Part shown: positions 1 through 24,763 of the stretch, piece after piece
Position numbering within the stretch: the stretch's first letter is position 1
How the letters are laid out: each line of letters begins with the position of its first letter
Source of the DNA: Syntrophales bacterium
GTDB taxonomy: Bacteria; Desulfobacterota; Syntrophia; Syntrophales; JACQWR01
DNA length: 55,360 bases
Assembly: GCA_035283845.1 (NCBI GenBank)
Contig: DATESZ010000264.1
Coordinates: 1-55,360 of the forward strand
Reading direction: 5' to 3'
Notes under the pieces: model-generated
Told to the model about the DNA's origin: nothing
Seen by the model: the letters and a program-made list of their open reading frames with translations, nothing else
The model's database searches: none
Position numbers and translations under genes: made by a program

Positions 1-141
1 CTATCCGCATACTTCCTCCTCTCCATTCAAAAATTATGCCACGTGCTAGGCAGAATTATCATATCTCAATATCACTAATTATGCCTATTGCGCTGTTGAA
101 CTCCACAAAAGACATGGTTCCTGCTTCATCCGCCGGCATTA
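1..141. repeat. Terminal direct repeat copy 1 (= 55220..55360); assembly overlap of a circular or circularly permuted genome
   Basis: nt 1-141 (ctatccgcatacttcc...catccgccggcatta) recur verbatim as the last 141 nt of the window. Confidence 0.95.
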
Positions 142-300
142 AAACACCACACGTCCGCAGGCTCTTTCCGAGGTTCCCCCGGTGGCTGAAATCAAGTTCT
201 GTTTCTGTAATCCGAATTTAAGGATATTCTGCGCTGCAAGATGGTCTCTGTCATGGGCTGCCCCGCACGTCTCACATGTCCACACGCGGTCAGATAGCGT
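95..300 (-). ncRNA. Candidate TnpB guide RNA (omega/reRNA) scaffold overlapping the tnpB 3' end
   Basis: Inference only. In characterised TnpB elements the RNA overlaps the 3' end of tnpB and stops at the element right end. Here the minus-strand sequence ...GTGGAGTTCAAC ends at nt 95. The 5' limit cannot be set by eye. Confidence 0.3.
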
Positions 301-1302
301 CAGCCGAGCATTCACCTTGCCACAGGTACACATACGGCTTGAAGGCTCAAAACGGCCTATCTCCAGATAGTTCTTGCCACTGTCTGCAAGTTTATACTGG
401 AGCATCCGGTAGAAATCTCCAAGCCCTAAATCAGAAATGCTCTGAGCAAGGCAGTGATTCTTCACCATGCCCTTGATGAAAAGGTCTTCACACACAACCG
501 TATCGAAGCGGTTGACTATCCCGCTTGTCGTCTTGTGTAAGAAATCCTTTCTCTGGTTTGCCACATGTTCATGATACCGCGCAAGTTTCAATACGGCTTT
601 GCGTCTATTGCCACTTCCTTTCACCTTCCGGCTTGCCCTACGCTGTAAAACCTTCAGCCTTCCGAGTGCCTGCTTCAGGTGCTTCGGATTTTCTATCTCC
701 GTTCCATCTGAAAGAACGGCAAACGTCTTGATGCCTGTGTCAATCCCGACCGCCGTTGCCTTGCGGATCGCCTTCTGCTTTGCCTTCTTGTCTTCTGCCT
801 CAACGGCAATACTCACGAAGAACTTGCCTGTTGCCGTCTTCTTAATCACTGCTGTCTTTATTGTTCCCTCGAATGTCCGGCTTATTCGTGTCGGTATCCA
901 TCCGAGCTTAGGAGCAAAGACCCTATTTTCATCAAACTTGACCTTTACATTTTGCGGAAAACCTACAGTATGCCGTTTGTCATGCTTGCGCTTGAACTTT
1001 GGGAATCCGTGCTTTTCCCTAAAGAAACGAGTGAAGGCTTTTTCCATATTCACAATAGACTGTTGGAGGCTCTGAGCAACAGACAGATTCAGCCATTCAT
1101 ATTCAGGTTTCTTCTTTATCTGCGTTAATTCTGCCATCAACGTGAAGGCACTCATGGTTTTTTTATCCTTCTGGTACGCCTCAATCCTTCGGGCAAGAGA
1201 CCAGTTATACACCCATCGGGCATTACCGAGCATCTGTTCAAGCTGCCCTGCCTGATGCTGGTTCGGATAGATTCTGTATTCGTAACCACGTATTTTTACC
1301 AT
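139..1302 (-). CDS. tnpB: TnpB RNA-guided endonuclease (IS605 OrfB family), 387 aa
   Basis: ORF track. RuvC triad motifs VGIDTG, VCEDL and DRDHLAAQNI, with a CxxC...CxxC zinc finger (CTCGK..CETCG) between the last two. Confidence 0.93.
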   Translation of the reverse strand: MVKIRGYEYRIYPNQHQAGQLEQMLGNARWVYNWSLARRIEAYQKDKKTMSAFTLMAELTQIKKKPEYEWLNLSVAQSLQQSIVNMEKAFTRFFREKHGFPKFKRKHDKRHTVGFPQNVKVKFDENRVFAPKLGWIPTRISRTFEGTIKTAVIKKTATGKFFVSIAVEAEDKKAKQKAIRKATAVGIDTGIKTFAVLSDGTEIENPKHLKQALGRLKVLQRRASRKVKGSGNRRKAVLKLARYHEHVANQRKDFLHKTTSGIVNRFDTVVCEDLFIKGMVKNHCLAQSISDLGLGDFYRMLQYKLADSGKNYLEIGRFEPSSRMCTCGKVNARLTLSDRVWTCETCGAAHDRDHLAAQNILKFGLQKQNLISATGGTSERACGRVVF

Positions 1303-1310
1303 GTTTAGAA

Positions 1311-1338
1311 TTTATCATAGTTCTCCAGAGAATGTCAA
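1311..1338 (-). promoter_or_regulatory. Possible sigma70-like promoter in front of tnpB
   Basis: Minus strand TTGACA (1338..1333), 16 nt, GATAAA (1316..1311). The -10 is weak and would give a nearly leaderless tnpB mRNA. Confidence 0.25.
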
Positions 1339-1366
1339 GTCTTTTTAGAAAATAAATAAATATGGG

Positions 1367-1425
1367 GTTCAACAAAGGTTTCGAGCGGACGGGGTGAAGC
1401 TCCGCCGCTCAAACCGGCGTTATCC
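1367..1425 (+). repeat. attC-like folded repeat a (59 nt)
   Basis: GTTCAAC-AAA-GGTTT[C]GAGCGG[A]CGG-ggtgaagct-CCGCCGCTCAAACC-GGC-GTTATCC. The TTA of the right core is the stop of 1420..1599. Confidence 0.75.
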
Positions 1426-1599
1426 TAATATCAACTGCCGATGTTTCCACGCATCGTCGGCAAGCCCTTCGGCGTCCTCTACTGGTAATTTCCGCAACCT
1501 GTCATGTTGTCCGGTCTGACACGCGTCATCATAAATATTCGCCGCATAGGTAGCTAAAAATGTTACCGTAAAGTGTTCTTTAAATTCTTTTTCGTCCAT
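1420..1599 (-). CDS. Hypothetical cassette protein, 59 aa
   Basis: Internal ATG of ORF 1420..1776 preceded by GGGGGGAAG. The longer ORF-track start would read through repeat b. Confidence 0.6.
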   Translation of the reverse strand: MDEKEFKEHFTVTFLATYAANIYDDACQTGQHDRLRKLPVEDAEGLADDAWKHRQLILG

Positions 1600-1618
1600 A
1601 ATCTTCCCCCCATTAAAA

Positions 1619-1705
1619 GGATAACAATTAAATGAAGCGGAGCGGAAAGTCGCTCGTCGCGCCTCATTCTTGGGCTTTGGCCGCCCGCTTATTCCTGCGT
1701 TGTGT
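1619..1705 (+). repeat. attC-like folded repeat b (87 nt)
   Basis: GGATAAC-AATTA-AAT[G]AAGCGG[A]GCGG...CCGCCCGCTTATT-CCTGC-GTTGTGT. About 88% identical to repeat e. Confidence 0.75.
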
Positions 1706-1783
1706 AAAATAAAACCATAAACTGAAAGATGCCCACAAAGTGAAACAAAAAATCCCAGCACCAAGAAAGGCACCATAAAAAAG

Positions 1784-2227
1784 ATGACGGATACGATTGT
1801 TGGAGCACTTATCGGGGTCGGCAGTGCTATTCTCGGCGCGATTGTTGGAGCTTGGATCGGTTATCGACTCTCCATTTCTTTGGTTCATGTCACTACTCGA
1901 CACAATGCTGCGTCCAATTTGAGGAAAGCTTTCTATGACGAACTTGCCATCTTGAATATGAGCAGCCTTAAAGATATTGATGCCTGTTCTATGCTTGAGG
2001 GTGCTTTCAAGAAACATATGATCGCTTTTTGGGAACTCAAATCCACCTTGCCGAAAAGCAAATGCGTTGCTTTCACCCAGGCATGGGAAGAGTATTATTG
2101 TTATCCAGGAACAGGGGACCATCATCTTGAACAATACGACACACTTACTGGAGGCTCGGAACAGCGTAAGGGGAAAAGAACGCTTGCAATTAAACGGATT
2201 GAACATATTCTCTCCTTTACTGAATAA
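1784..2227 (+). CDS. Hypothetical membrane-anchored protein, 147 aa; the only plus-strand gene in the array
   Basis: ORF track. N-terminal hydrophobic helix (IVGALIGVGSAILGAIVGAWIG). More protein-like than the antisense ORF 1664..2245. No clear SD. Confidence 0.5.
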   Translation: MTDTIVGALIGVGSAILGAIVGAWIGYRLSISLVHVTTRHNAASNLRKAFYDELAILNMSSLKDIDACSMLEGAFKKHMIAFWELKSTLPKSKCVAFTQAWEEYYCYPGTGDHHLEQYDTLTGGSEQRKGKRTLAIKRIEHILSFTE

Positions 2228-2239
2228 ATGAAAAAGACC

Positions 2240-2298
2240 ACACAACCAAGCACTACAGCGGACAGGCTGATCGCCTGCCGCTGACCTTTGCGTTATGT
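2240..2298 (+). repeat. attC-like folded repeat c (59 nt)
   Basis: ACACAAC-CAAGC-ACT[A]CAGCGG[A]CAGGC-tgatc-GCCTGCCGCTGACC-TTTGC-GTTATGT. The right core holds the stop of 2293..2496. Confidence 0.8.
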
Positions 2299-2496
2299 TT
2301 CAAAATCCTTCAAAGTCATATGTCCCTGGCATACAAAAACAATGACAGAGAAGAAACAACATTCCCAATACGTGGGTTGGAGTATGGCAAAACGAGCGGG
2401 TACGTTCCATAAATAGTAATAACCAAACCACAATAATCCGCCCGTGGCTGCCCACCAGAAAATACAGTACAAAGCAAATGCAAAATATTTTAACAT
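2293..2496 (-). CDS. Hypothetical small membrane protein, 67 aa
   Basis: ORF track. Two hydrophobic segments rich in W/Y/F. The start codon is the CAT of the left core of repeat d. Confidence 0.5.
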   Translation of the reverse strand: MLKYFAFALYCIFWWAATGGLLWFGYYYLWNVPARFAILQPTYWECCFFSVIVFVCQGHMTLKDFET

Positions 2497-2580
2497 AACA
2501 AGCTCACTGAACCCGACCGGAATTACGTCCGGTGCGTTTCAGCCAAATCCGTGGCCAGCGGGTTATCTCTGGCGTTATCT
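2493..2580 (+). repeat. attC-like folded repeat d (88 nt)
   Basis: ACATAAC...AACCCG-ACCGGaattacgtCCGGT...CGGGTT-ATCTCTGGC-GTTATCT. The central ~60 nt are identical to repeat g. Confidence 0.7.
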
Positions 2581-2581
2581 A

Positions 2582-2788
2582 TCACTCAAGTACCCGATAG
2601 TTTTTAAGTGGAATCCATCGGCCCTTGTCCTCGATCATACACCCACCGAAAAAAGTCCATTCATGTTGTTTCCCTATACGGCTTGCCTGGCCATCGCATT
2701 CCATTTTTCCCGCGATAGGGATTAGTGCAAGAATTGCAAGAATTGCGACCGCTATGACCACTTCGATAATTGTAAATCCTTTCATCAT
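2582..2788 (-). CDS. Prepilin-type N-terminal domain protein (pilin/pseudopilin-like), 68 aa
   Basis: MMKGFTIIEVVIAVAILAILA matches the G-F-T-L-I-E prepilin cleavage/methylation motif plus a hydrophobic helix. AAGGAG SD lies before the ATG at 2788. Confidence 0.7.
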   Translation of the reverse strand: MMKGFTIIEVVIAVAILAILALIPIAGKMECDGQASRIGKQHEWTFFGGCMIEDKGRWIPLKNYRVLE

Positions 2789-2809
2789 CCGTCTCCTTTT
2801 AAATTTAAA

Positions 2810-3283
<474 letters not shown>

Positions 3284-3302
3284 CTAACTCCTTAAAATAA
3301 AA

Positions 3303-3362
3303 GCATAACAATTAGTTGCAGCGGACAGGCTAATCGCCGCGCCGCTGACCTTTGCGTTAGCT
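3303..3362 (+). repeat. attC-like folded repeat f (60 nt)
   Basis: GCATAAC-AATTA-GTT[G]CAGCGG[A]CAGGC...CCGCTGACC-TTTGC-GTTAGCT. The right core holds the stop of 3357..3545. Confidence 0.8.
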
Positions 3363-3545
3363 TCCGTAGCATCTTTTCCTTGGCCCTTTGCATCCCATAC
3401 ACGGGTTCTCTCCCTTATTTACAAGTCCCATCACAATCATTCCACCCAATAAACACGTTTTGGGAACGTACCCTTGTCCGATTGCCATTTGCAGATTAAT
3501 ATCGTCGCTGTCTGCTTCTATTTGACTAAAATAATGTGGTTTCAT
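3357..3545 (-). CDS. Hypothetical cassette protein, 62 aa
   Basis: Internal ATG of ORF 3357..3575 preceded by AGGAGAG. Confidence 0.55.
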   Translation of the reverse strand: MKPHYFSQIEADSDDINLQMAIGQGYVPKTCLLGGMIVMGLVNKGENPCMGCKGPRKRCYGS

Positions 3546-3566
3546 TCGATCTCTCCTTTCAAAAAT

Positions 3567-3649
3567 AAAGAACAATTCAACCCCGACCGGAATTACGTCC
3601 GGTGCGTTTCAGCCAAATCCGTGGCCAGCGGGTTATCTCTGCGTTATAT
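3567..3649 (+). repeat. attC-like folded repeat g (83 nt)
   Basis: AAAGAAC-AATTC-AAC[C]CCG-ACCGGaattacgtCCGGT...CGGGTT-ATCTCTGC-GTTATAT. Confidence 0.75.
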
Positions 3650-3654
3650 CCCGA

Positions 3655-3873
3655 TCATTTAAAGTACCGCAAGAAGCAATCGTAGCAGCATTCCTTGTCT
3701 TCATAAATACCATCAAGGCCAAGAATTACATGTTTACCGCACTTGAAGCACTTCCCCGTTAGTGGCAACGGTTCCGTCCCGACATTTGAGAACATTGCAT
3801 TAAAGTGGTCGGATATTCTTAACCTTTCTGCCTTTCCTACTTCCGACTCTTCCCATTGTCCTTGTGTTGGCAT
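3655..3873 (-). CDS. Hypothetical zinc-ribbon protein, 72 aa
   Basis: ORF track. CFKCGKH...CCYDCF cysteine pairs. AGGAGG SD. Confidence 0.6.
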   Translation of the reverse strand: MPTQGQWEESEVGKAERLRISDHFNAMFSNVGTEPLPLTGKCFKCGKHVILGLDGIYEDKECCYDCFLRYFK

Positions 3874-3896
3874 ATTGAATTCCTCCTAAAATACTG

Positions 3897-3982
3897 ATTT
3901 AACCAGTCACTACAGCGAACGGGGATCACACGCTGCGGCTTCCATCATGCCCGTGGCCCCGCCGCTGACCTTAGCGTTAGCA
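3897..3982 (+). repeat. attC-like folded repeat h (86 nt)
   Basis: ATTTAAC-CAGTC-ACT[A]CAGCGa[A]CGGGG...CCCCGCCGCTGACC-TTAGC-GTTAGCA. The left core fits RYYYAAC exactly. The right core holds the stop of 3977..4219. Confidence 0.8.
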
Positions 3983-4219
3983 TTTAGGACATGAAACTCG
4001 TTTGTTGTACGTTTGCCAGCCCATAAATGTCTTGATGCTTTGCCAAGGGTGATGTTCTAATTTCTTAATAAGTTCCACATTACATCTTTGGCATTTAGTA
4101 TGAAAATTAAGGCCATCATAAAAACATTCACCAACAATATGACCAAGGGAAAAACATAAAAGAATGCTAACAATTTTATCCAGCGGACGGGTAATTTCGT
4201 CCTGTGGTTTTTCATTCAT
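3977..4219 (-). CDS. Hypothetical Cys-rich protein, 80 aa, with a repeat-encoded N-terminal leader
   Basis: ORF track. The only start codon and SD (GGAGG) lie inside repeat i. The first 17 codons (MNEKPQDEITRPLDKIV) are shared with 10081..10608. Confidence 0.5.
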   Translation of the reverse strand: MNEKPQDEITRPLDKIVSILLCFSLGHIVGECFYDGLNFHTKCQRCNVELIKKLEHHPWQSIKTFMGWQTYNKRVSCPKC

Positions 4220-4254
4220 GTTCTACCTCCCCGCCGATGATAACGGCGTTATAT
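4165..4254 (+). repeat. attC-like folded repeat i (90 nt)
   Basis: TGCTAAC-AATTT-TAT[C]CAGCGG[A]CGGG...CCCGCCGATGATA-ACGGC-GTTATAT. nt 4168..4224 are identical to 10557..10613 in repeat o. Confidence 0.75.
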
Positions 4255-4497
4255 TCTGATACACCTTACTGCCGTCTCCTGCCCCAACGGGAACTCAAAG
4301 CACGATGACCACTTAGTGCAGCATCTCCTCGTATGCGGAACTGAATGTAGACATGTGTATCCCGCCATTTTGAAACATTTGTCAGCGTTGATACACCTTA
4401 CATCGGGCTTTAGTTTAAACCTCCTCCCTTTTTTTATTACAACGGCTTCCCCGATTTCTCCTTTTTCACCCGCAACATAATTCCTGATATTCCCCAT
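4249..4497 (-). CDS. Hypothetical cassette protein, 82 aa
   Basis: Internal ATG of ORF 4249..4557 preceded by GGAGGGG. The stop lies in the right core of repeat i. Confidence 0.5.
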   Translation of the reverse strand: MGNIRNYVAGEKGEIGEAVVIKKGRRFKLKPDVRCINADKCFKMAGYTCLHSVPHTRRCCTKWSSCFEFPLGQETAVRCIRI

Positions 4498-4513
4498 AAC
4501 CCCTCCAAAAACC

Positions 4514-4599
4514 AGATGACAATTAAATGAAGGCGACGGGAAGTTACTCCGTCGCATTCAGACACGCTCACCGTCCCGCGCCTTATTACTGCGTTAGCA
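4514..4599 (+). repeat. attC-like folded repeat j (86 nt)
   Basis: AGATGAC-AATTA-AAT[G]AAGGCG[A]CGGGA...TCCCGCGCCTTATT-ACTGC-GTTAGCA. Same plan as b and e, with compensatory changes. Confidence 0.75.
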
Positions 4600-4953
4600 T
4601 CACCACTTGATTAATAAACCCCAAAATTCCGACTCGTGCGTCTTTTCAAACCACACTCCCATATTTGCAAAACAAGAAAACCCATCTGCGTGGGCCAGCG
4701 TTTCTTGTTCTTCTGCCGTGAGCCATCTTCCTGCCAGGCATACGCCTCTCCAGTTAAGCGTGATCTCCTGCACTGATTTACAAACGCACTCTCCGATTTT
4801 ACGACACGCCTTCGTTCTGAGGCCGGTATAGAGGTAGAGTTTATCCCCCGGTTTTGGGTTCCTCCCGTCCCGCCGTTTCGCCCGGATCGTTTGTGTTTTT
4901 AACCCGGCTTCAACCAATGGCGCAAATTGCTTTTTAAATCCTAATAATGGCAT
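4600..4953 (-). CDS. ASCH-domain-like protein, 117 aa
   Basis: ORF track. N-terminal GFKKQFAPLVEAGLKTQTIR...PGDKLYLY resembles the ASCH beta-barrel signature (from memory). G-rich SD. Confidence 0.55.
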   Translation of the reverse strand: MPLLGFKKQFAPLVEAGLKTQTIRAKRRDGRNPKPGDKLYLYTGLRTKACRKIGECVCKSVQEITLNWRGVCLAGRWLTAEEQETLAHADGFSCFANMGVWFEKTHESEFWGLLIKW

Positions 4954-4983
4954 CTCTCCCCCCTATGCAAAAGATAATAAAAA

Positions 4984-5046
4984 TGCTAACAAATCGCTCC
5001 AGCGGAGTGCCAAAGGACCGGCACCCGCTGACCTTTGGCGTTATGA
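4984..5046 (+). repeat. attC-like folded repeat k (63 nt)
   Basis: TGCTAAC-AAATC-GCT[C]CAGCGG[A]GTGCC-aaaggacc-GGCACCCGCTGACC-TTTGGC-GTTATGA. The right core holds the stop of 5041..5208. Confidence 0.8.
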
Positions 5047-5208
5047 TTCATCATCTAATGGACAATCCCCCGGCATACAACAGGCATGCTGCCTCTGTAT
5101 ATCCCCTCTCACCAAGAGCAAGCTGCATTCCCCATCAAGATTCTGCCGGGAGGGAAGAAAACAAGGGCACATGCCGCAACTTGTTATTTTATCAGGCAAC
5201 TTTTTCAT
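5041..5208 (-). CDS. Hypothetical Cys-rich miniprotein, 55 aa (below ORF-track cutoff)
   Basis: Hand translation: MKKLPDKITSCGMCPCFLPSRQNLDGECSLLLVRGDIQRQHACCMPGDCPLDDES. GGAGGAG SD 3 nt before the ATG at 5208. Confidence 0.45.
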   Translation of the reverse strand: MKKLPDKITSCGMCPCFLPSRQNLDGECSLLLVRGDIQRQHACCMPGDCPLDDES

Positions 5209-5227
5209 AACTCCTCCATAAATAAAG

Positions 5228-5287
5228 ACATAACAATGAAATCAAGGCGACGGATTTTACTCCGCCTGCTCTTTCGCTGATTCCTGA
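5228..5287 (+). repeat. Degenerate attC-like repeat l (left half only)
   Basis: ACATAAC-AATGA-AATCAAGGCGACGGA...CGCTGATT. No GTTA right core before the exonuclease gene. Confidence 0.4.
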
Positions 5288-5309
5288 TACAGGTGGCTAT
5301 AAAACGCTC

Positions 5310-5939
5310 TCAGGAAGTCATCATTTTTTCGTAAATTGCCATTGTCGTTTTGATGTCTCTCAAACAGTGGTTATCTATCGCCTCGTAGTCCCCCATTAAC
5401 CAGAGTTGGTAAATCTCCGATCCATTGCCGCCGCCGTGCTGAACGCCCAAGAAATCAGCACACGAGGCCAAAGAAACATAGTCTTTAAAATCTGCCGCCC
5501 AGACCTTCATCAAGTCCGTCGTTAGATGCGGGTTGCCCCTCGGTATGGCGTTCCTTATTCCCGTGAGGCCATATTTTATGGCTTTTCTCCATATCCACGG
5601 CATGTCAAACGTGATGATATTCCATCCCACCAAGTGCAGCGGTTCATGCCATGCGCCTGCTATTTTATCAAAAGCCCCGGCTAAAAGCTCCATCGTTTCC
5701 CGTTCGTTTGCCCCTCGGATGATTTGGGCTTCCCCGCCTTCAAGGCAGAGGCCAACACAGAAGATTTCCCCCTTCATGCTGTTAAGGCTCTGCTTTTGGT
5801 ATTCATTCTCGACATTGGCTTCTTGATATGCCCTGATGGTTTCCGGCTTGGACATTGTGCCGGGAGCTTTTATATCTTCAGGGAGTGGCCTGGTCGGGCC
5901 GGGGGTAGATTCTATGTCCAGGAATAATTTTGGTATCAT
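5310..5939 (-). CDS. DnaQ-like 3'-5' exonuclease (PolB-exonuclease-related family), 209 aa
   Basis: ORF track. LFLDIESTP Exo I motif. Start overlaps the ERF stop (ATGA). Confidence 0.7.
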   Translation of the reverse strand: MIPKLFLDIESTPGPTRPLPEDIKAPGTMSKPETIRAYQEANVENEYQKQSLNSMKGEIFCVGLCLEGGEAQIIRGANERETMELLAGAFDKIAGAWHEPLHLVGWNIITFDMPWIWRKAIKYGLTGIRNAIPRGNPHLTTDLMKVWAADFKDYVSLASCADFLGVQHGGGNGSEIYQLWLMGDYEAIDNHCLRDIKTTMAIYEKMMTS

Positions 5940-6676
5940 GGTTGACCTCCGATATTATCCGGGACATCCTGCGGTTCTACGATGGTGATCGACACAAGAT
6001 TGTTTCCGTATTGACCTTTGACAAACGCGACCTTGACGGGAACGATATTTGCCGCCGCGCCGGATGCAATGAGGCTTAGGTCTTTCTTGAAAGTCTGATA
6101 AATATTCCCGTCTTCGTCTGTTATCCCGTACTTGACATACGGTTTACCCTTGTTCGCTCCGGCGGTTGACACCCCCGGCTTTTCCTCTACTGACTTGATG
6201 TAAACGGTTTTGGTTTCCTCGTTTCCGGCAAGGGCTGTTTTTTCGGCAGGCGGCTTTGTCGTTTTATTGTCGCCCACTCCTGCGCTCGCCGCGTTTCCGT
6301 CATCATCCTCCGGTGCTATTCCCACAATGGATTGTAGAGAATAACGCCGCAGGTAGGTTATGCAGCTTCCGATGGCCTGCGGGTCGCTTTTAACCGGCCT
6401 TGCCACAAGCCGCCCTCGCATCCACTCGCCGGAAGAATGGCAAAGCGTAGTATCTATGCAGACCATCTCCGGGTGTTCTGGTAGGAAATCTGCCGTTTGC
6501 ACAACGCTTAGTCCGTTGTTGGCAAGCGGCTTCCGGCACGCATCCCATACAGACGCAAGGTCGGCGTAGGAGCTTTTAAAGAAGGGGTTTTGGCTATCCT
6601 TTACGGCCCCCTCCATTATCCCCTGTGCTTTCGCCAGGGCGTCTGCTAATTTCCCTATTGTCTCTGATTGGCTCAT
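5936..6676 (-). CDS. ERF-family single-strand annealing recombinase, 246 aa
   Basis: Internal ATG with AAGGAG SD. IGKLADALAKAQ...NPFFKSSYADLASVWDACR is the remembered ERF N-terminal signature. Confidence 0.8.
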   Translation of the reverse strand: MSQSETIGKLADALAKAQGIMEGAVKDSQNPFFKSSYADLASVWDACRKPLANNGLSVVQTADFLPEHPEMVCIDTTLCHSSGEWMRGRLVARPVKSDPQAIGSCITYLRRYSLQSIVGIAPEDDDGNAASAGVGDNKTTKPPAEKTALAGNEETKTVYIKSVEEKPGVSTAGANKGKPYVKYGITDEDGNIYQTFKKDLSLIASGAAANIVPVKVAFVKGQYGNNLVSITIVEPQDVPDNIGGQP

Positions 6677-6713
6677 CGAAAAAACTCCTTGCTGATTTTG
6701 TAGGCACCTTCTT

Positions 6714-7040
6714 TCATAATTTATTCCCCGCAAAGGCATTTAGTATTGATCTCATCGGTTCTGTCACATGGGCGTTTAATTTTCCCGGCTCCTCTCCCGC
6801 TTCCCACGGCTCGGAAGTGAGGCACATGAAGTTTACCCCGGCCGCTAAGATTTCGTACCGCGTGGGCCACGCCTCATCGTGGAAGGTTTTTCTGCAATCT
6901 CCCCGAGAAAACAGGCGGAACAATGCCTCGCTATCTAGGTGGATACTGAAGCTGCTCACCCCAATACACCCCTCGGCGTGCAGCTCCGCATATTTTTTCG
7001 TTAACTCCAATGCCTTCGATATAAACTCTTGTTTTCCCAT
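6714..7040 (-). CDS. Hypothetical protein, 108 aa
   Basis: ORF track. Contains the 34-nt segment (6789..6822, LTSEPWEAGEE) duplicated at 9757..9790. Confidence 0.6.
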   Translation of the reverse strand: MGKQEFISKALELTKKYAELHAEGCIGVSSFSIHLDSEALFRLFSRGDCRKTFHDEAWPTRYEILAAGVNFMCLTSEPWEAGEEPGKLNAHVTEPMRSILNAFAGNKL

Positions 7041-7060
7041 TTTCCGCCTCCCTCGTTAAA

Positions 7061-7748
7061 TTATTCCCCCGCCTTTGAGTAGTCGCTCAACAACAAGCTC
7101 GGCTGGAATGGCTTGCTCAGATGGGCGCCCTTTTTTAAATTATCTATTGCCCACAGTGGTTGTAAATTCTTTAGCGCCCACGCCCGCCTGAAATCTAAGT
7201 CATCCGGTGTCTCGAAGTTGAAGGCAGACAGCGGGATCTTATGATCAATATGCCATTCTCCCCTGTTTTCCCAAGTCATACCCGGCTTGAACTTCTTTGC
7301 CAGGTGCTTCATTAATTGATCTAAGGTAAAATCCACTAGCGACTCCCAGCGCCGACCGTTTTTGCTCCCGTCAAGCGATTCCCAGATAGAGCGGCGCATC
7401 CCTTCGTTAAGACTCCCTTTCGGGGTTGGCATTGGCCCATGCTTGGCAGCGTCCCCTGTGCGCTTCGGGGTTACGACTGTAGTATTCTTTGTGTCTTGCC
7501 AGGGTAATGTCGCGATTTTGCGTATAATATTTTTTGCGATGCCGACTCGCGGCGGCCGCGTGGTTTTTCCAGTAAACCCTTGACCAGATATTTATGCAAT
7601 CCTTGCATCTATTGCCGCTCCATGAGTAAAAATCACAGATTTTCTTTGTCCCTTTGCATTTTGAGCATCTTTTTTCTATCCCAATAGAAGGACTTGCATT
7701 TAGGACACCTTCGCACGTCTGAGCTTCTAGCAACCCACTCATGATCAC
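7061..7748 (-). pseudogene. HNH endonuclease split by a frameshift (ORFs 7407..7748 and 7061..7432)
   Basis: The N-terminal Cys-rich, Y/N-repeat part and the C-terminal WHIDHKIP...NLQPLWAIDNLKKG HNH part lie in different frames and overlap by 26 nt. In related phage HNH genes (from memory) these form one protein. Confidence 0.65.
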
Positions 7749-7816
7749 ACCTCTTGCATATGATTTTGGTAATTTTGATTTTCATGGGTTATATGTATGC
7801 TCCATAAGTAAGATTG

Positions 7817-8101
7817 TCAAGAGTTATTATAGTCGCATCCGTGAGCGGCGATCCCCTTTTCCTTCCGCCCCATCACCATGCAGTCTTCGGGGTGATATTC
7901 TGAGCGTTCCAGCTCGGCGCTCTGGCTGTCCAGTTTAAGCTCTTGCGAGTGGAAGAAATCGCCCGCAAAAACGATCAGATCAACGGCTTCCGCCTCTGCC
8001 GTTTCAACGATAAAGTTCAGGCACTTTTCGCATTCCTTAATATCTTTGTCCCGTAGGTGGGCGTCGGCAAAATGGAGTAGCTTCATGATATTATTACCCA
8101 C
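7817..8101 (-). pseudogene. Truncated calcineurin-like/SbcD-type metallophosphoesterase fused to a duplicated 25-aa tail
   Basis: MKLLHFADAHL and GDFFH motifs only. Homology ends after ~60 aa and continues into ERSEYHPEDCMVMGRKEKGIAAHGC, which is shared with 10081..10608. Confidence 0.55.
7835..7910. repeat. 76-bp dispersed direct repeat, copy 1 (copy 2 at 10105..10180)
   Basis: gcatccgtgagcggcgatcccc...ggggtgatattc[t/g]gagcgttcc, 75/76 identical. Confidence 0.9.
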
Positions 8102-8340
8102 CCTTCCTTTAACCCGTAAACAGGGCCTCTAAGAATGTAGTTTATGGGCATGTGCCAGATGTACCCCGTATATTCAAGAGGGGCTCCGGCTTTCATTTCC
8201 TCGCCGCTATATTTCGTCTCTTCGAGCTGTAGGTCATCCCCCACCTTAAAGCCTCTATCATCAAAGCGTATTTCAAACCGCTTGCCCATATCTGCCGTTG
8301 CCCGGAAGGCTTCTGTATCTGTCTTTAATATGTGTTTCAT
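8083..8340 (-). CDS. DUF3850/ASCH-like protein, 85 aa
   Basis: MKHILKTDTEAFRA...KRFEIRFDDRGFKVGD...YILRG...GLKEGWVIIS matches the remembered DUF3850 pattern. GGAGGTG SD. Confidence 0.7.
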   Translation of the reverse strand: MKHILKTDTEAFRATADMGKRFEIRFDDRGFKVGDDLQLEETKYSGEEMKAGAPLEYTGYIWHMPINYILRGPVYGLKEGWVIIS

Positions 8341-8344
8341 GGCT

Positions 8345-8932
8345 TCACCTCCACCCTTCTGCTCGGTTTCCAGGGATAAAAAATAACTCCCAAAAGGCCG
8401 TAAGTCTGATCTTCTCGTAATCGGCCCTGGCGGGCTTCTCGATCTTCTCGTAATCGGCCCTGGCAGGATTCTCGATCTTCTCGTAATCGGCCCTGGCAGG
8501 ATTCCTGATCTTCTCGTAATCGGCCCTGGCAGGATTCTCGATCTTCTCGTAATCGGCCCTGGCAGGATTCTCGATCTTCTCGTAATCGGCCCAGGCGGAC
8601 TTCCTGATCTTCTCGTAATCGGCCAAGGCGGAGGGAGATAAAAGCCCAAGCGGAATCCCCATCAGATAAAACTTTCCTGTCTTTATCGCCTCGGCAATCA
8701 CCACGGGAAATTTGCTAGGGGAAGAAAAATCTGTGCACTCTTTTTTCACCCCCTTGCCGTCCAACTCATAAAAGAAATCAATCGCTCCGTGTCCGACAAA
8801 ATCATCGGGCGTGGTGTGCTGCTGTAATTTTTTCCCTCGTTTAGAATTATAAATATCGTCATAGGTGAGGAAAAGGATTTCTGTGGCGCCGTCTGTTCGT
8901 CGCACCTCTTTCCAGCTGATAAATACGCACAT
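8345..8932 (-). CDS. Hypothetical protein with C-terminal ADYEKIENPAR tandem repeats, 195 aa
   Basis: ORF track. GGAGGG SD. About seven 11-aa repeats. Confidence 0.6.
   Translation of the reverse strand: MCVFISWKEVRRTDGATEILFLTYDDIYNSKRGKKLQQHTTPDDFVGHGAIDFFYELDGKGVKKECTDFSSPSKFPVVIAEAIKTGKFYLMGIPLGLLSPSALADYEKIRKSAWADYEKIENPARADYEKIENPARADYEKIRNPARADYEKIENPARADYEKIEKPARADYEKIRLTAFWELFFIPGNRAEGWR
8408..8630. repeat. 33-bp tandem repeat, ~6.7 copies
   Basis: Unit gatcttctcgtaatcggccctggcaggattctc starts at 8408, 8441, 8474, 8507, 8540, 8573 and 8606. Confidence 0.9.
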
Positions 8933-8935
8933 GGC

Positions 8936-9271
8936 TCATCCCTCCATAGCAAAAGGGACGTCCTGCCCGCCCGCAATGTCCTGGACGCGGAAAGGCTCCC
9001 CGGTTGATGTCCTAATCATCCCCTCAACGCTTGCCATCATGCGGCCGGATACGTTAGGGTCGCGCACAATCTGAGCGGGAAGCCAGTCCACCTTTGCCGC
9101 CTGAGCAAGCCGGTCGAGCCCTTGCTTGTGGATTCTTACCGGCTCCACGATCAGGGCGAACCCCGGCGCGATATCCGCGGGGCTGGTTCCCGTGGGGATG
9201 AGCATATGGCAGCCCTTGGACTCAAACTCCTTTAACCTCTGGTACGCTGTTTTCTGTGATTGATCTGTCAT
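8936..9271 (-). CDS. Hypothetical protein, 111 aa
   Basis: ORF track. GGGAGG SD. Confidence 0.65.
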   Translation of the reverse strand: MTDQSQKTAYQRLKEFESKGCHMLIPTGTSPADIAPGFALIVEPVRIHKQGLDRLAQAAKVDWLPAQIVRDPNVSGRMMASVEGMIRTSTGEPFRVQDIAGGQDVPFAMEG

Positions 9272-9273
9272 GA

Positions 9274-9426
9274 TAATAACCTCCCACCGGTTAGGTTGGG
9301 GAAGGCCCCGCTGCCTGCCCTAGAGCAGACAACGGGTGGGGATGGCCTTCCGTATTAGTCTTTGCGATCTCCCATTAACCGCGCTGGTCTTATGTAATGC
9401 CGCGTGCGGCATATCTCTCGTTATCT
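9274..9426 (+). repeat. Long composite attC-like repeat m (~153 nt)
   Basis: TAATAAC...CGGTTA/TAACCG, GGAAGGCC/GGCCTTCC and ATGCCGC/GCGGCAT stems...ATCTCTC-GTTATCT. The right core holds the stop of 9421..9573. Confidence 0.5.
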
Positions 9427-9573
9427 ACCATTACAAACGGATTCTTTCTGGGGACGTATTTTTAGAAGACGATCCACTGCTTCTGGTGTTAGGTACACTT
9501 CCTCCCCACTACAATCATAACATCCATCGAACTCGATATGTAAGTCTCCGTCTAAATCCCATTCTATTTTCAT
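9421..9573 (-). CDS. Hypothetical cassette protein, 50 aa
   Basis: Internal ATG of ORF 9421..9621 with GAGGA 8 nt upstream. Confidence 0.45.
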   Translation of the reverse strand: MKIEWDLDGDLHIEFDGCYDCSGEEVYLTPEAVDRLLKIRPQKESVCNGR

Positions 9574-9603
9574 GTTCTCATCCTCAAATCTCCTAAAATA
9601 ACA

Positions 9604-9669
9604 AGATAACAAAGCGCTCAAGACGGACGTGGCATACAGCCGCCACGCCGCTTAGATTGAGCGTTCCCT
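9604..9669 (+). repeat. attC-like folded repeat n (66 nt)
   Basis: AGATAAC-AAAGC-GCTCAAgaCGG[A]CGTGGC-atacagcc-GCCACGCCGcttagaTTGAGC-GTTCCCT. Confidence 0.65.
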
Positions 9670-9744
9670 ACCACCAATAACCAAATGCTCCGTTATTCCT
9701 ATATGCAACTTCGCGCCCTCCGCCGTTTCATGCGCTCTTCTAAA

Positions 9745-9921
9745 CTAAACATGGGTCTCCTCTCCCGCTTCCCACGGCTCGGAAGTGAGGAACGCCCGGA
9801 CGCCATCGATAAGCTCGTCCAAGTTGTTCGTGCTGATAACATTGGTATGGCCCGAATAGGCGTTGTACCTGCCGAAATTGTTATCCCGGCCCCCGTCGCT
9901 TATGGTTAGATTTTTAGTCAT
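9745..9921 (-). CDS. Hypothetical protein, 58 aa
   Basis: Internal ATG overlapping the stop of 9914..10081 (ATGACTAA). The C-terminus carries the duplicated LTSEPWEAGEE segment. Confidence 0.5.
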   Translation of the reverse strand: MTKNLTISDGGRDNNFGRYNAYSGHTNVISTNNLDELIDGVRAFLTSEPWEAGEETHV

Positions 9922-10081
9922 GGGTTTTCCCCAGCTTTTTAGTGGGCAACCTGCCCTTTCCGTCAATCTTACATTTGGGACATTTGCGCCGCCGTATTGC
10001 ATGCATGAGCGGATACTCTTCGCGACAAGCATAATTTCGGCACCGTACCCACTTTATATCAAAACAAGACACATACCACAT
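9914..10081 (-). CDS. Hypothetical zinc-ribbon protein, 55 aa
   Basis: Internal ATG overlapping the stop of 10081..10608 (TAATG). CRNYAC...CPKC. Confidence 0.5.
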   Translation of the reverse strand: MWYVSCFDIKWVRCRNYACREEYPLMHAIRRRKCPKCKIDGKGRLPTKKLGKTHD

Positions 10082-10608
10082 TATTCCCCTACCTCCTTGT
10101 ACTGGCATCCGTGAGCGGCGATCCCCTTTTCCTTCCGCCCCATCACCATGCAGTCTTCGGGGTGATATTCGGAGCGTTCCGGTTCGTAGTCATTCGCCCA
10201 CTTAAACGGTATTTCGTGTAGCTCTTTACCGCAATAACAGCAGAACCCCATGCCATTTTCAGAGGGTGTCCCCTCGATTATGCAATGGAGTTGACCGCAT
10301 TCTGTTGACCAGCTCCCCTCTTCGTCCGCTGTCCAGGAGCACCCCTGCCCCGGCCTATTTTCACCCATTTTAACCAGAGGTTCCTCTGTGTACTCTTTTT
10401 TTACGTAAAGCATGCCTGTCTTGTGATCTTCAATACACCAAGACTTTTTTGCTATATGCTTAGCTATTATCATTAAGGTTCTGATGTTATTGCTCACCCC
10501 CTGCCAGTGCCAATAAACAGAGTATGGCCCCTTGGTACGAAGCGAATAACGGGGCATAACAATTTTATCCAGCGGACGGGTAATTTCGTCCTGTGGTTTT
10601 TCATTCAT
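10081..10608 (-). CDS. Hypothetical protein, 175 aa, with a repeat-encoded leader and the duplicated C-terminal tail
   Basis: The ATG at 10608 with GGAAGGAAG SD lies inside repeat o. An alternative ATG lies in the GTTATG core (MPRYSL...). Confidence 0.55.
   Translation of the reverse strand: MNEKPQDEITRPLDKIVMPRYSLRTKGPYSVYWHWQGVSNNIRTLMIIAKHIAKKSWCIEDHKTGMLYVKKEYTEEPLVKMGENRPGQGCSWTADEEGSWSTECGQLHCIIEGTPSENGMGFCCYCGKELHEIPFKWANDYEPERSEYHPEDCMVMGRKEKGIAAHGCQYKEVGE
10105..10180. repeat. 76-bp dispersed direct repeat, copy 2
   Basis: 75/76 identical to 7835..7910. Confidence 0.9.
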
Positions 10609-10643
10609 GTTCTTCCTTCCCGCCGCTGACCTTTGCGTTATAT
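10554..10643 (+). repeat. attC-like folded repeat o (90 nt)
   Basis: GCATAAC-AATTT-TAT[C]CAGCGG[A]CGGG...CCCGCCGCTGACC-TTTGC-GTTATAT. Confidence 0.8.
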
Positions 10644-10858
10644 TACTGATGACCATCTAAACCTTCGTTCCAAGTATTAACCCCAGGATTTTCTACATCT
10701 CCGTTATTTCTTATATCGGCAAATGACCAATCTTCATCCCCGTCGACGTGTAGGGAAAAAGAAATTTCACCGTCTTTTGGTAATTCAGGATGATTGGTTT
10801 CCCGAAGTATTTTTTGGACTGCATCAGCTATTTCTCGTTTTTGTCTTACTGAAAACAT
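10643..10858 (-). CDS. Hypothetical acidic protein, 71 aa
   Basis: ORF track. GGGAGGTG SD. Confidence 0.65.
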   Translation of the reverse strand: MFSVRQKREIADAVQKILRETNHPELPKDGEISFSLHVDGDEDWSFADIRNNGDVENPGVNTWNEGLDGHQ

Positions 10859-10879
10859 GCGCCACCTCCCTTATAAAAA

Positions 10880-10942
10880 ATATAACCAGTCACTAAAGCG
10901 GCGTGAGGCTGTTTGCCACGCCGCTTACCTTGGGCGTTATGT
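10880..10942 (+). repeat. attC-like folded repeat p (63 nt)
   Basis: ATATAAC-CAGTC-ACT[A]AAGCGGCGTG-aggctgtttgc-CACGCCGCTTACC-TTGGGC-GTTATGT. Confidence 0.8.
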
Positions 10943-10953
10943 GACAAAATCCC

Positions 10954-11112
10954 TCACTCATATTCAGTGCAATCATGGTTCTCGTGTTTCGCGCAATATT
11001 CACAAAAACCTTCGCGCCCGCAAATATCGCAAGTGCTTGTGTCATCCGAGCCATCAGGGTTTTTTATCTGCTCGCAACATACATGACAAAAACCTCTATC
11101 TTCGTCTCTCAT
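10954..11112 (-). CDS. Hypothetical Cys-rich miniprotein, 52 aa
   Basis: Internal ATG of ORF 10954..11136 with GAGGGA SD. CHVCC...CDICG...CEYC. Confidence 0.5.
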   Translation of the reverse strand: MRDEDRGFCHVCCEQIKNPDGSDDTSTCDICGREGFCEYCAKHENHDCTEYE

Positions 11113-11132
11113 ATTTCCCTCTATAAATAAAA

Positions 11133-11221
11133 GCATAACCAGTCACTGAACCCGCCCGGGGAATTCCGGTCTGGGTTTTCCGTCAAGGCTTAGGCCCCGG
11201 CGGGTTATCTCTACGTTATAT
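11133..11221 (+). repeat. attC-like folded repeat q (89 nt)
   Basis: GCATAAC-CAGTC-ACTG-AACCCGCC[C]GGGG...CCCCGGCGGGTT-ATCTCTAC-GTTATAT. Confidence 0.75.
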
Positions 11222-11458
11222 TTAAAATTCATCAACCAGTTCATCAAATGGGCGTCCCGTGCGTATTGCTTCGGCGGATAGGTGGAGAAAAACGCGTGGG
11301 CTAAATTTACGAACCTTTTCATATCTTTCATTGCCCTTACGGATATCGTGCAGAACCATATAATCTAACGCCTTCAGGTGGTCAGCGTGGAGGACAACCG
11401 CATCGTCACGGTGTAGTTCCCATGCCTCGTATGTTTTAGCATTATATGGGTTACTCAT
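11222..11458 (-). CDS. Hypothetical protein, 78 aa
   Basis: ORF track. GGAGGA SD. Preferred over the overlapping ORF 11143..11331. Confidence 0.65.
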   Translation of the reverse strand: MSNPYNAKTYEAWELHRDDAVVLHADHLKALDYMVLHDIRKGNERYEKVRKFSPRVFLHLSAEAIRTGRPFDELVDEF

Positions 11459-11534
11459 TCCAGTCCTCCATTAAAAGAATAAGATCATCTTTTGTATATG
11501 GTTGTTTTTTACTTGGTTTTCTCCAAAAAACAGA

Positions 11535-11583
11535 AAACAACTTAATCCAGCCCGTGGCCCGGCGGGTTATCCTTGCGCTATAC
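11535..11583 (+). repeat. Short attC-like repeat r (49 nt)
   Basis: AAACAAC-TTAAT-CC-AGCCCG-tggcccgg-CGGGTT-ATCCTTGC-GCTATAC. The GCTA variant of the right core supplies the TAG stop of 11578..11763. Confidence 0.5.
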
Positions 11584-11763
11584 AGCACAAAATAAAATAC
11601 AATCCTTAGCGTCGGATTGGCTAATCTCTATCAATCCATACGATCCATCACCCTCGTCAAGCCACCCTTCACCTGAGCAAATAAAAATCCTCTGATCGCG
11701 GGTTTTAACGGCCTCATATTCCGTTCGATGTTTACAATCGCTGCATTTTGGTGTGGTTTTCAT
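11578..11763 (-). CDS. Hypothetical Cys-containing protein, 61 aa
   Basis: Internal ATG overlapping the stop of 11760..11918 (ATGA). Confidence 0.55.
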   Translation of the reverse strand: MKTTPKCSDCKHRTEYEAVKTRDQRIFICSGEGWLDEGDGSYGLIEISQSDAKDCILFCAV

Positions 11764-18932: not shown

Positions 18933-19543
18933 CTCCAGGGCGCGCTCCTGGCGCCCGTCGGGAAAACTAACCAGAGACGCAGATCATATAATTCCGGCAC
19001 ACCACGCAACACAATCACCGATGCCAAAAACCCCAGAGGTAAGCAAAAAAACATGCCAACCGGGTGACCTCAGCCCGAACGGAAATAATAAACAATAGCG
19101 CCCCTTCACACCAAAAGAACACAAAAAAAAGAAAAGCGTCAATTATTTGACGGTCTAACCGACTCTATCCGACACAGGCAGGCCGGGTATGCAGGCCAAC
19201 GCCCGGCAGGCCTCCTGCCCCGTCAGCGCACCCGGCACAGGCCGCGACTGGTAAAGTTTGGGCAGAAGTTAGTGAGTTTAGCCTAATAGTTCTGGTTAGT
19301 TACTGCATCTGGCCCAGGCTTTTGAGTTATCAACAGGCGGGATGGGCGCCAGGTATTTCGGGATGCCCCCACCCCTACCCCCCATAGTCGGGTTTTCGCT
19401 CGATTTGGGCCCGGAATTATCGAATTACCGCTCCATATCGCGTGGGTCAAATTTCGTTAAAGTTATGTCTCCTCTGTTAGGATTGTGAGTTCTTTGGTGT
19501 TCGCCGCCATTCCGCCGCCCTACTTATTCCCCAGAAATAAACC

Positions 19544-19572
19544 TTGACAACCCGTAAAGTAAATGCTATTAC
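19544..19572 (+). promoter_or_regulatory. Sigma70-like promoter of the recombinase gene
   Basis: TTGACA (19544..19549), 17 nt, TATTAC (19567..19572). The ORF-track start at 19544 is this -35 box. Confidence 0.5.
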
Positions 19573-19591
19573 AGCCCAAAATGGAGCGCAT

Positions 19592-20188
19592 ATGACCAAG
19601 CATCAGCAATCGCTTAACCACCCCCAGAAGGGGTCTCGGATAACCGTTGACCCTATTAGAAGTCTCGAAGACATAAACGAGATCAAGCTGCTACTGAGGA
19701 ATGATCCGCTTTATCTTTGTCTTTTCACTCTAGGGATAAACACAGGATTGCGTGCTTCGGACTTACTCCATATTACGGCGGGGCAGGTCAAGGATTTATC
19801 CCCGATGGACGAGTTGTGTTTGAACAAGCGTAAGACCGGCAATGGTCGGAGGATGAATTTAAACTCGGCCTGTGTTGATGCGATACATTCTCTTTTGGCT
19901 AGCAGGGGGTATCTTGACGAAGAAGTCTTGTTTATTGGGCAGCGGGGGCCGTTGACTGTTTCGTCTGTGAATCGGTTGTGGAAAAGGTGGGCGAGGCAAT
20001 GTGGGATTCGGGGGAACTTCGGCAGTCATTCTGCCAGAAAGACTTTTGGCTATCATCAGCGCGCGACCTTTGGGGTGTGCCTGCCCGAGCTGATGCGGGT
20101 GTTTGGGCATTCAAGTGAACGGCAAACCCTTGCCTACATAGGCATCCAGGATGAGACGATAAAGAACATTTACGCAAACACACTATAA
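19592..20188 (+). CDS. Tyrosine recombinase, catalytic domain only, 198 aa
   Basis: ATG with GGAG SD. Catalytic motifs TGLRASDL (R), HSARKTF (HxxR), VFGHSS (H) and LAYIG (Y). No N-terminal core-binding domain of normal length. Confidence 0.85.
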   Translation: MTKHQQSLNHPQKGSRITVDPIRSLEDINEIKLLLRNDPLYLCLFTLGINTGLRASDLLHITAGQVKDLSPMDELCLNKRKTGNGRRMNLNSACVDAIHSLLASRGYLDEEVLFIGQRGPLTVSSVNRLWKRWARQCGIRGNFGSHSARKTFGYHQRATFGVCLPELMRVFGHSSERQTLAYIGIQDETIKNIYANTL

Positions 20189-24334: not shown

Positions 24335-24627
24335 GTAATCTTACCGAAAAGCAGTCGCTCTGCCTATCCTGCCAATATTGTTGCAAAACAATAGCCTTCC
24401 CGTTTGCCGCAGACCCGGTAAGCCTGGAATTTTATAAAGCCAGAGGGCTAAAGGTTATCCATTCGACTGAAACGGAAGAATCATGGGTCACCTTTCCTCA
24501 CGTTTGCCCGCATATTACCAAAGAAGGCTGTAATATTTATGTTAAAAGGCCATACGCCTGTATGGTATTCGATGGCAGCAAGCACCCGGTAAGCTCCAAC
24601 CAATGCCTGTGGCCAAGGAAAGATTAA
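24331..24627 (+). CDS. CxxCxxCC metal-cluster domain protein (YkgJ-like), 98 aa
   Basis: ORF track. CLSCQYCC motif. Confidence 0.6.
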   Translation: MSNLTEKQSLCLSCQYCCKTIAFPFAADPVSLEFYKARGLKVIHSTETEESWVTFPHVCPHITKEGCNIYVKRPYACMVFDGSKHPVSSNQCLWPRKD

Positions 24628-24763
24628 ATTAAATAGCGTCAAATTTTTGACGGTCTGCCCCCCCCTGCGAAAAAATAGTTGACAAATAAACAAAACCGTG
24701 CGCATATCGCACACCGTCGGATAATTGACGCGATATATGTCATAAAAAAGACGGGGATAACGC

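Follow-up and report, generated by a model that had tools for sequence, protein, structure and literature searches.

The tnpB locus and its surroundings

We examined a 55,360-nt contig assigned to a Syntrophales bacterium (DATESZ010000264.1, assembly GCA_035283845.1; the whole stretch is called the window below), in which a minus-strand tnpB gene is bracketed by two complementary heptamers. A preliminary description of this DNA had placed these heptamers at 95-101 (GTTGAAC) and 1367-1373 (GTTCAAC), and both are where it put them. The segment 95-1366 is probably a tnpB-only member of the IS200/IS605 family (IS1341-like) that sits directly 3' of GTTGAAC, the core box of a hairpin resembling an integron attC site, with TTGAAC as its presumed target and transposon-associated motif (TAM). 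The element is described here on the tnpB strand, so that its left end lies at 1366 and its right end at 95, and a slash marks a junction. The main features are listed in Table 1.

Bases 1-141 of the window are identical to 55220-55360. This exact 141-nt terminal redundancy is that of a circular or circularly permuted assembly with a unit of 55,219 bp, and the left flank of the tnpB locus in window coordinates therefore continues at 55219. The locus stands at the artificial start of the contig, and the next minus-strand gene (ATG at 10) spans that start. The window looks like a 55.2-kb phage: its plus strand encodes a terminase, lysis-region genes and long structural-type open reading frames (ORFs), and its minus strand carries an early block of small genes that includes an ERF recombinase, an exonuclease and a Dam-like gene. 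This phage was seen in more than 50 public assemblies or samples (ERZ27254862 and JGI 3300002105 are examples), and tnpB was present every time. The GenBank phage collection held no sequence similar to window positions 1-3000, and IMG/VR held no close relative of the whole phage. Close relatives of the TnpB protein (86-93% protein identity) were taken from IMG/VR, JGI, ENA and Logan contigs; the copies compared below are identified by labels beginning with L. For tnpB-only copies of 60% identity or more, the count was 1,609 proteins at E <= 1e-100.

The gene tnpB is the only one inside the element, and its product is intact. It matches the Pfam families HTH_OrfB_IS605, OrfB_IS605 and Cas12f1-like_TNB, scores 323 bits against the NCBIfam model guided_TnpB (cut-off 100), and aligns over its full length with the ISDra2 TnpB structures 8EXA and 8H1J (E = 9e-71). 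The RuvC triad (D188/E272/D353) is complete and, like the zinc-finger cysteines, aligns with that of ISDra2 TnpB. The left end is essentially a promoter (TTGACA-18-TAAATT with a TG, 10/12 matches, running from 1338 to 1309 on the minus strand), whose -10 box ends 7 nt ahead of the ATG. No Shine-Dalgarno sequence is present, and the tnpB mRNA may be leaderless in translation. Folded as DNA, the left end reaches only -1.0 kcal/mol (z +1.2) and does not form the subterminal hairpin of an IS200/IS605 left end.

Table 1. Positions of the element, its parts and the adjoining features in the window.
Feature	Position	Strand	Description
Imperfect 12-bp hairpin	47..87	.	Right flank, outside the element
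Predicted guide region, 20 nt	75..94	-	AGCGCAATAGGCATAATTAG; in genomes without tnpB, this stretch would be the target
Right end / predicted omega-RNA scaffold	95..213	-	Overlaps the 3' end of tnpB; all predicted stems in the last 94 nt (95-188)
Right-end terminal heptamer	95..101	-	GTTCAAC (GTTGAAC on plus); reverse complement of the left-flank heptamer
tnpB	139..1302	-	387 amino acids; RNA-guided endonuclease, ISDra2-like clade
Left end	1303..1366	-	64 nt, non-coding, A/T-rich; outward sigma-70-like promoter for tnpB; no hairpin
3' (outer) core box of hairpin 'a'	1367..1373	-	GTTGAAC (GTTCAAC on plus); directly 5' of the left end; presumed target/TAM TTGAAC
attC-like hairpin repeat 'a'	1367..1426	-	Last site of the array; 5'-GGATAAC-GCCGG-stem/loop/stem-CCTTT-GTTGAAC-3'

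Boundaries of the element

The element is discrete at both ends, with a length of 1,272 bp here and 1,259-1,287 bp elsewhere. Its ends are base-precise in about eight left and about 15 right contexts, and no target duplication accompanies them. On the left, GTTGAAC stands directly before the element in the window copy, in L001, L005, L157 and L159, and in ten contigs (L162-171); variants of the heptamer occur in L003 (GTTGAAAC), L002 (ATTGAGC) and L172-181 (GTTGTAC). The flanks of L138 and L001 are 100% identical up to GTTGAAC and then run into two different types of left end. Conversely, L162-171 encode an identical TnpB and have four different left flanks, which diverge just ahead of TGTTGAAC/. 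On the right, nucleotide homology of L001, L002, L003 and L008 to the window stops exactly at base 95, and about 15 unrelated flanks follow ...GTTCAAC/ among the copies. All phage copies end in ...GGAGTTCAAC/ or ...GCGTTCAAC/ on the tnpB strand, and the terminus of the close copies reads ...GAACCATGTCTTTTGTGGAGTTCAAC/. Three contigs (L166-168) end exactly at the right end, as would a repeated unit. Across the Logan contigs L162-171, left flanks A-D and right flanks 1-4 combine as A-1, A-2, B-3, C-3, C-4 and D-1, and both junctions of the element therefore act as independent exchange points.

The heptamer pair taken alone is not beyond chance, since the 55,219-bp unit contains the two heptamers 13 times in all and, with both strands counted, TTGAAC 40 times. 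The pair is significant because it recurs across copies. The preliminary description had proposed comparing the flanks of other copies as a check on its claim, and the claim survives that comparison, the match being found again in about eight hairpin contexts. In L172-181 the pair is compensated (GTTGTAC/...GTACAAC/), so that the flank heptamer and the terminus co-vary. We considered whether heptamer complementarity is general in the clade and rejected this: it is absent from the TnpA-type relatives, and the lone match, in L050, is internal to the left end.

At the hairpin foot that carries tnpB in L001, L138 (Ga0315284_10720913, reverse strand 128-1044) has an element with a window-type left end in which a ribbon-helix-helix-like ORF and an HNH endonuclease-like ORF replace tnpB and the last 229 nt, including the omega-RNA, are kept. 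Its right end is joined to a point that lies 1.6 kb downstream in L001 and is preceded by TTAAC.

Right end, predicted omega-RNA and guide

Analysis of the last 120 nt of 15 clade members with RNAalifold gave 16 base pairs, 15/16 of them with compensatory changes; this conserved, covarying predicted structure is the expected omega-RNA scaffold. Distant relatives from archaea (including Methanosarcina), cyanobacteria and other phages terminate in GTAGTTCAC/ and share the layout ...GAAGCC-stem-TCTTTAG-stem-GGTAGTTCAC/, and many of them have a Y1 TnpA beside tnpB. Because the terminus is conserved in TnpA-associated distant relatives, the heptamer at 95-101 is the ancestral right-end and omega-RNA terminus of the element itself and not an array core, which corrects the preliminary description, where it was taken for a recombination core. 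The two brackets of tnpB thus differ in nature, one being the terminus of the element and the other the outer core of hairpin 'a'. In the terminal 31 nt of the right end, the hairpin has shrunk to 3-4 bp (-0.5 as a DNA fold).

In the TnpB/reRNA (right-end RNA) paradigm, the guide is the sequence of about 16 nt beyond the right end (PMC8612924), and on this basis we infer that AGCGCAATAGGCATAATTAG (94-75) is the guide. Among the fetched sequences, its own locus was the only match. The guides of the other copies also gave no second-site match, with the exception of the L138 guide, which matches a gene 1.6 kb downstream in L001.

The imperfect hairpin at 47-87, together with its 7-nt spacer (TTGCGCT, 88-94), had been likened to the right half of another recombination site. 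Its arms, TAGGCAGAATTA at 47-58 and TAATTATGCCTA at 76-87, are complementary at 11/12 bases. The DNA fold is modest (-6.9 kcal/mol, z -1.75; 9/200 shuffles were equally good), and the covariance model of the array repeats described below does not detect it. Because the hairpin is absent from all other copies, it is part of the flank and not of the element. That likeness does not hold: the insertion placed this flank DNA beside the right end, and it coincides with the target that the guide is predicted to match. The hairpin also overlaps two weak promoter-like matches (87 to 58 and 62 to 33) that would serve the next minus-strand gene.

Stand-alone copies of the omega-RNA scaffold were also observed. 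They are 94 nt long in L031 (5407-5499), L026, L028, L141 and L142, and 134 nt long in L034 (9416-9548) and L145. These solo scaffolds lie directly behind a sigma-70-like promoter (TTGACAACCGAATCTTTCTGCATGTAACATTA/CATAATCAAAGCC...GGAGTTCAAC/ATTGTTTCATTGAGAACTAT), and the fetched parts of their contigs contain no tnpB. Such copies might represent guide-RNA genes on their own or what is left after precise deletions.

attC-like hairpins beside the element

About 16 hairpin repeats punctuate the early block (1367-11585), with the minus-strand form ATAACGC, stem, variable loop, stem and TTGTTAT. In their paired outer boxes, unpaired spacers, extra-helical bases and variable loops they resemble integron attC sites, clusters of which have been reported in phage genomes (PMC9892861). 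Hairpin 'a', at whose foot the element begins, folds as DNA at -13.5 kcal/mol (z -2.9). We built a covariance model from 14 window repeats, with site 'a' excluded; it recovered site 'a' at 30.8 bits (E = 6e-5) and the flanking hairpins of L003, L001, L159 and L157 at 27.7, 23.6, 23.4 and 23.3 bits, respectively, and each match to a flanking hairpin ends at the left junction. The model had no match to the hairpins of the lineages at 64-67% identity (L005, L162-181), which were judged by folding only. The flank hairpins fold at -8 to -16 kcal/mol, and, apart from L004 and L161, all lineages with 64% nucleotide identity or more have the 3' arm of a strong hairpin as their left flank. In other phage contigs, a related element occupies the same point of about eight types of hairpin. 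The association of an RNA-guided nuclease with a hairpin of recombination-site type, which the preliminary description had called unusual, is thereby upheld and extended to other phages.

Between copies, the element bodies are 78-89% identical, the hairpins about 52-63% and the right flanks 38-59%. Related hairpins were found only in the pairs formed by the window copy with L002 (78%) and by L001 with L157 (70%). The possibility that the hairpin is part of the element was rejected, since hairpin identity is at background level compared with that of the element bodies. Ahead of the left end, (G)TTGAAC does not vary, and in alignment it falls on the 3' box of the hairpin itself. Hairpins also occur on the other side. 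The right-end terminus of L003 and its flank form a site of the family (36.5 bits), in which TCAAC supplies the 5' box. Several other right flanks are also hairpins, most are not, and the elements are often placed between two hairpin sites.

The array does undergo exchange of a cassette-like kind. L151 and L156 retain the upstream gene and lose homology at the 5' box of site 'a' (ATAAC/GC), where neighbouring modules thus exchange. The small early genes of the array are antisense to the usual cassette orientation, and in relatives (L151, L156, L148, L157) another site, or no site at all, comes after the same gene. Judged from sequence comparison, this suggests cassette-type shuffling in phages. 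In L159, where a hairpin bears the full element at its 3' foot, its 5' box (TAACAG) is abutted by what remains of another, dissimilar right end of TnpB type (...GGAAGCCCCTGAATTTATTCAGGGGAAGTTTAC, at about 215-290).

Searches for empty sites and mobility enzymes

The empty junction predicted in the preliminary description, ...TTGCGCT/GTTCAACAAAGG..., was also derived here (in longer form, ...GCCTATTGCGCT/GTTCAACAAAGG...). This exact junction was absent from metagenome contigs. Searches of viral contigs with the left flank of L001, the right flanks of L001 and L031 and the core of hairpin 'a' returned occupied copies or nothing, and an exact-protein look-up of both neighbour genes returned tnpB-carrying contigs only. 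The junctions to be expected from excision of the IS type are CTATTGCGCT/GTTCAACAAAGG for the donor joint and GGAGTTCAAC/CCCATATTTA for the single-strand circle. Homologues of the upstream 59-amino-acid gene (L151-156, L148) were evaluated as candidate empty sites; they are tnpB-free, but hairpin 'a' itself is replaced in them, which indicates cassette exchange, and they were set aside.

A tblastn search with the TnpA of the clade (NF033573, 132 bits) gave matches beside distant relatives. A Pfam scan of the 20 larger ORFs of the window revealed no integron integrase; the lone tyrosine recombinase among them (19544-20188, plus strand, 214 amino acids) is a weak Xer-like match far below the cut-offs. 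The window has no HUH/Y1 match and, by Rfam, no group II intron, and the element contains no DEDD transposase.

How the element may have arrived and persisted

The insertion of an IS200/IS605-type element 3' of TTGAAC was one of two readings offered in the preliminary description, and its essentials hold: 95-1366 is a discrete tnpB-only unit whose left end directly follows TTGAAC at the hairpin's 3' foot. We regard this as the probable explanation. The element would consist of a short, promoter-bearing left end, an intact tnpB and a right end encoding the omega-RNA scaffold, and its lineage has come to lie repeatedly at hairpin feet in phage early regions. The core-box consensus GTTRRRY overlaps the presumed TAM, and insertions between cassette-like modules would do no harm. 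With the adjacent flank AGCGCAATAGGCATAATTAG as the guide part of its omega-RNA, TnpB would cut tnpB-free sibling genomes where the guide sequence follows TTGAAC, after which recombination would copy the element in. The donor copy would be protected because its right end reads TTCAAC and not TTGAAC. In a phage, such a cycle would amount to a drive during co-infection like that of a homing endonuclease.

Several observations weigh against this explanation. Viral and metagenome collections yielded no empty site that would prove the origin of (G)TTGAAC in the flank, and GTTGAAC could instead be a terminal repeat of the element. No TnpA was found in the window or in any close phage copy, and with no left-end hairpin and a vestigial right-end hairpin, classical peel-and-paste transposition is not obviously possible; canonical relatives have hairpins at both ends, the left mirroring the right. 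The left-end sequence varies between sub-lineages as much as the flank does, unlike a functional transposon end. In addition, IS200/IS605 elements are not known to pair a left-flank heptamer with a right-end terminus that is its exact reverse complement, a relation that here outlasts a compensatory change. Survivorship could also contribute to the hairpin association, since phages retain only insertions between genes. Taken together, the departures from the textbook element point to a modified way of choosing or keeping its site.

The main rival places the hairpin within the mobility mechanism itself. The resident hairpin would act as the left-end structure, or the target would be chosen by pairing between GTTCAAC and GTTGAAC, with a Y1/HUH or other hairpin-specific enzyme acting in trans. 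Such hairpin-assisted or hybrid mobility would suit the loss, in the phage copies, of a left-end hairpin that every canonical relative keeps, and both junctions show the same geometry of hairpin, short spacer and GTT(G/C)AAC/. The tnpB strand is the strand of the hairpin with unpaired extra bases on its 3' arm, and the complementarity of heptamer and terminus is maintained by the compensatory change in L172-181. IS608 is said to read its target in a comparable way, via base pairing with an internal transposon sequence, as Guynet and colleagues reportedly found in 2009. We nevertheless consider this mechanism unlikely, since the compensatory change is a single independent event, a 7-nt pairing is weak, the related L004 and L161 do without an obvious hairpin, and the window offers no candidate enzyme: it has no HUH/Y1 match, and the lone tyrosine recombinase among the 20 ORFs scanned is Xer-like and below the family cut-offs.

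The other reading in the preliminary description made tnpB the cargo of an integron-type cassette, in which the heptamers are R-box cores (G/TTGAAC and GTTCAA/C) and a hairpin-specific tyrosine recombinase moved tnpB and hairpin together. It is contradicted by elements with identical TnpB that adjoin unrelated left hairpins and unrelated right sequences in independent combinations, even though the heptamers fit GTTRRRY and RYYYAAC perfectly and site 'a' is attC-like. The first bases of a cassette are expected to complement the inner core of its own attC, as is observed here with covariation. The exchange of modules at the 5' box of site 'a' in L151 and L156, the bona fide family site formed at the right end of L003, the related hairpins in two pairs of copies, and the documented attC clusters of phages all fit as well. 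Yet the left exchange point falls after GTTGAAC and not at the crossover box of the hairpin, also in L138 and L001; the right-end terminus is ancestral, being present in TnpA-associated elements whose hosts have no such arrays; the majority of right flanks form no hairpin; and the ORFs scanned included no integron integrase. Cassette transfer is accordingly improbable in our judgement. More remote still is an immobile, domesticated phage gene whose varied flanks arose by ordinary mosaic recombination alone and whose heptamer symmetry has no function. The presence of tnpB in all observed copies of the phage, its strong promoter, the lack of TnpA and end hairpins, and the independent assortment of flanks in L162-171, as recombination through a shared 1.3-kb segment would give, are in keeping with such a gene. 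Random recombination would not be expected to break exactly at GTTGAAC/ and GTTCAAC/ in so many contexts, to leave a heptamer that is conserved amid non-conserved surroundings and co-varies, or to produce the assemblies that break exactly at the right end in L166-168.

A bolder proposal, which we put forward as doubtful, is that this TnpB lineage has switched from TnpA-dependent peel-and-paste to mobility or maintenance tied to attC-like hairpins. It would have shed its own left-end hairpin, its position would be fixed by the resident hairpin and by the complementarity of terminus and core, and its TAM would be the recombination core. The nuclease would then police cassette junctions and drive itself, or replacement cargo such as the HNH gene and the stand-alone omega-RNA, through co-infecting phages.

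Other features of the window

A group I intron (Rfam RF00028, 53.3 bits, E = 9e-11) lies on the plus strand at 28722-29617, where listed ORFs overlap its coordinates. A tandem array with 7-9 copies of a 33-nt repeat (CTGATCTTCTCGTAATCGGCCCTGGCAGGATTC) lies at 8373-8669 and overlaps ORFs of the minus strand. Two copies of a motif with the palindrome GCGTCAAnnnnTTGACGGTCT (19115-19156 and 24615-24656) flank the region of the short tyrosine recombinase.

Relation to known systems and significance

The element belongs to the world of TnpB and omega-RNA, yet it fails two features of its family, the end hairpins and TnpA. With ISDra2-type and IS1341 elements it shares the TnpB architecture and catalytic residues, an omega-RNA encoded where the 3' end of tnpB meets the right end and guided by flank sequence (PMC8612924), an unvarying short motif that begins with TTGA 5' of the left end (the TAM of ISDra2 is TTGAT; PMC8612924), a precise right boundary, and the lack of target duplication. 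The phage lineage differs from them in having no TnpA, no left-end hairpin and a vestigial right-end hairpin, and in a left end that amounts to hardly more than a promoter and differs among sub-lineages. Its presumed target heptamer is also complementary, in reverse, to the terminus and changes along with it, and its insertions are found consistently at the feet of attC-like hairpins in phage genomes.

Other mobile elements use attC sites. Group IIC-attC introns and IS1111-attC elements insert in or beside attC hairpins in a site- and orientation-specific manner, exploiting the cores and the folding of single-stranded DNA (PMC3001079; IS1111-attC is mentioned in PMC11187229). Their resemblance to the present element as mobile elements at attC-type sites is functional and not one of kinship: they rely on a retro-homing ribozyme with a reverse transcriptase or on a DEDD transposase with a seekRNA, whereas the enzyme here is an RNA-guided RuvC nuclease and the sites are attC-like repeats in phage early regions instead of bacterial integrons. 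An IS200/IS605 element beside the terminal attC of an integrase-less attC cluster (CALIN) has been noted once, and the authors drew attention to how elements dependent on single-stranded DNA cluster (PMC7923331). That element is a complete IS with both end hairpins and TnpA, and no recurrent, base-precise relation to attC cores was shown for it. We found no report in the literature of a TnpB lineage that is recurrently and base-precisely tied to attC-like cores.

The closest parallel for the putative homing function is with the free-standing homing endonucleases of phages (T4 Seg/Mob; intronless homing), whose nuclease is expected to cut a competitor genome that lacks its gene, the gene then being copied in at co-infection (concept reviewed in PMC13565253). 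As with these, a nuclease gene lies here between conserved modules, and the HNH gene of L138 occupies the same slot. Recognition would differ, being RNA-guided here (TAM plus 16-20 nt) and protein-based in the phage enzymes.

TnpB elements are the ancestors of Cas12, and the spread of their tnpB-only copies, which are very abundant despite having no transposase, calls for an explanation. The phage lineage offers a tractable case because its copies are recent and have identical TnpB, many phage contexts show its ends to be exact to the base and set at a single kind of structured site, and its target and end motifs co-vary. The compact TnpB (387 amino acids), with a scaffold of about 94-119 nt and a presumed 6-nt TAM, might interest genome editors. 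For phage biology, the association links two systems that depend on folded single-stranded DNA, integron-type hairpin sites and IS200/IS605 elements, and suggests a role for the attC-like arrays of phage early regions as landing pads for RNA-guided nucleases. Should homing prove real, these nucleases would be RNA-programmable homing endonucleases that shape competition between phages.

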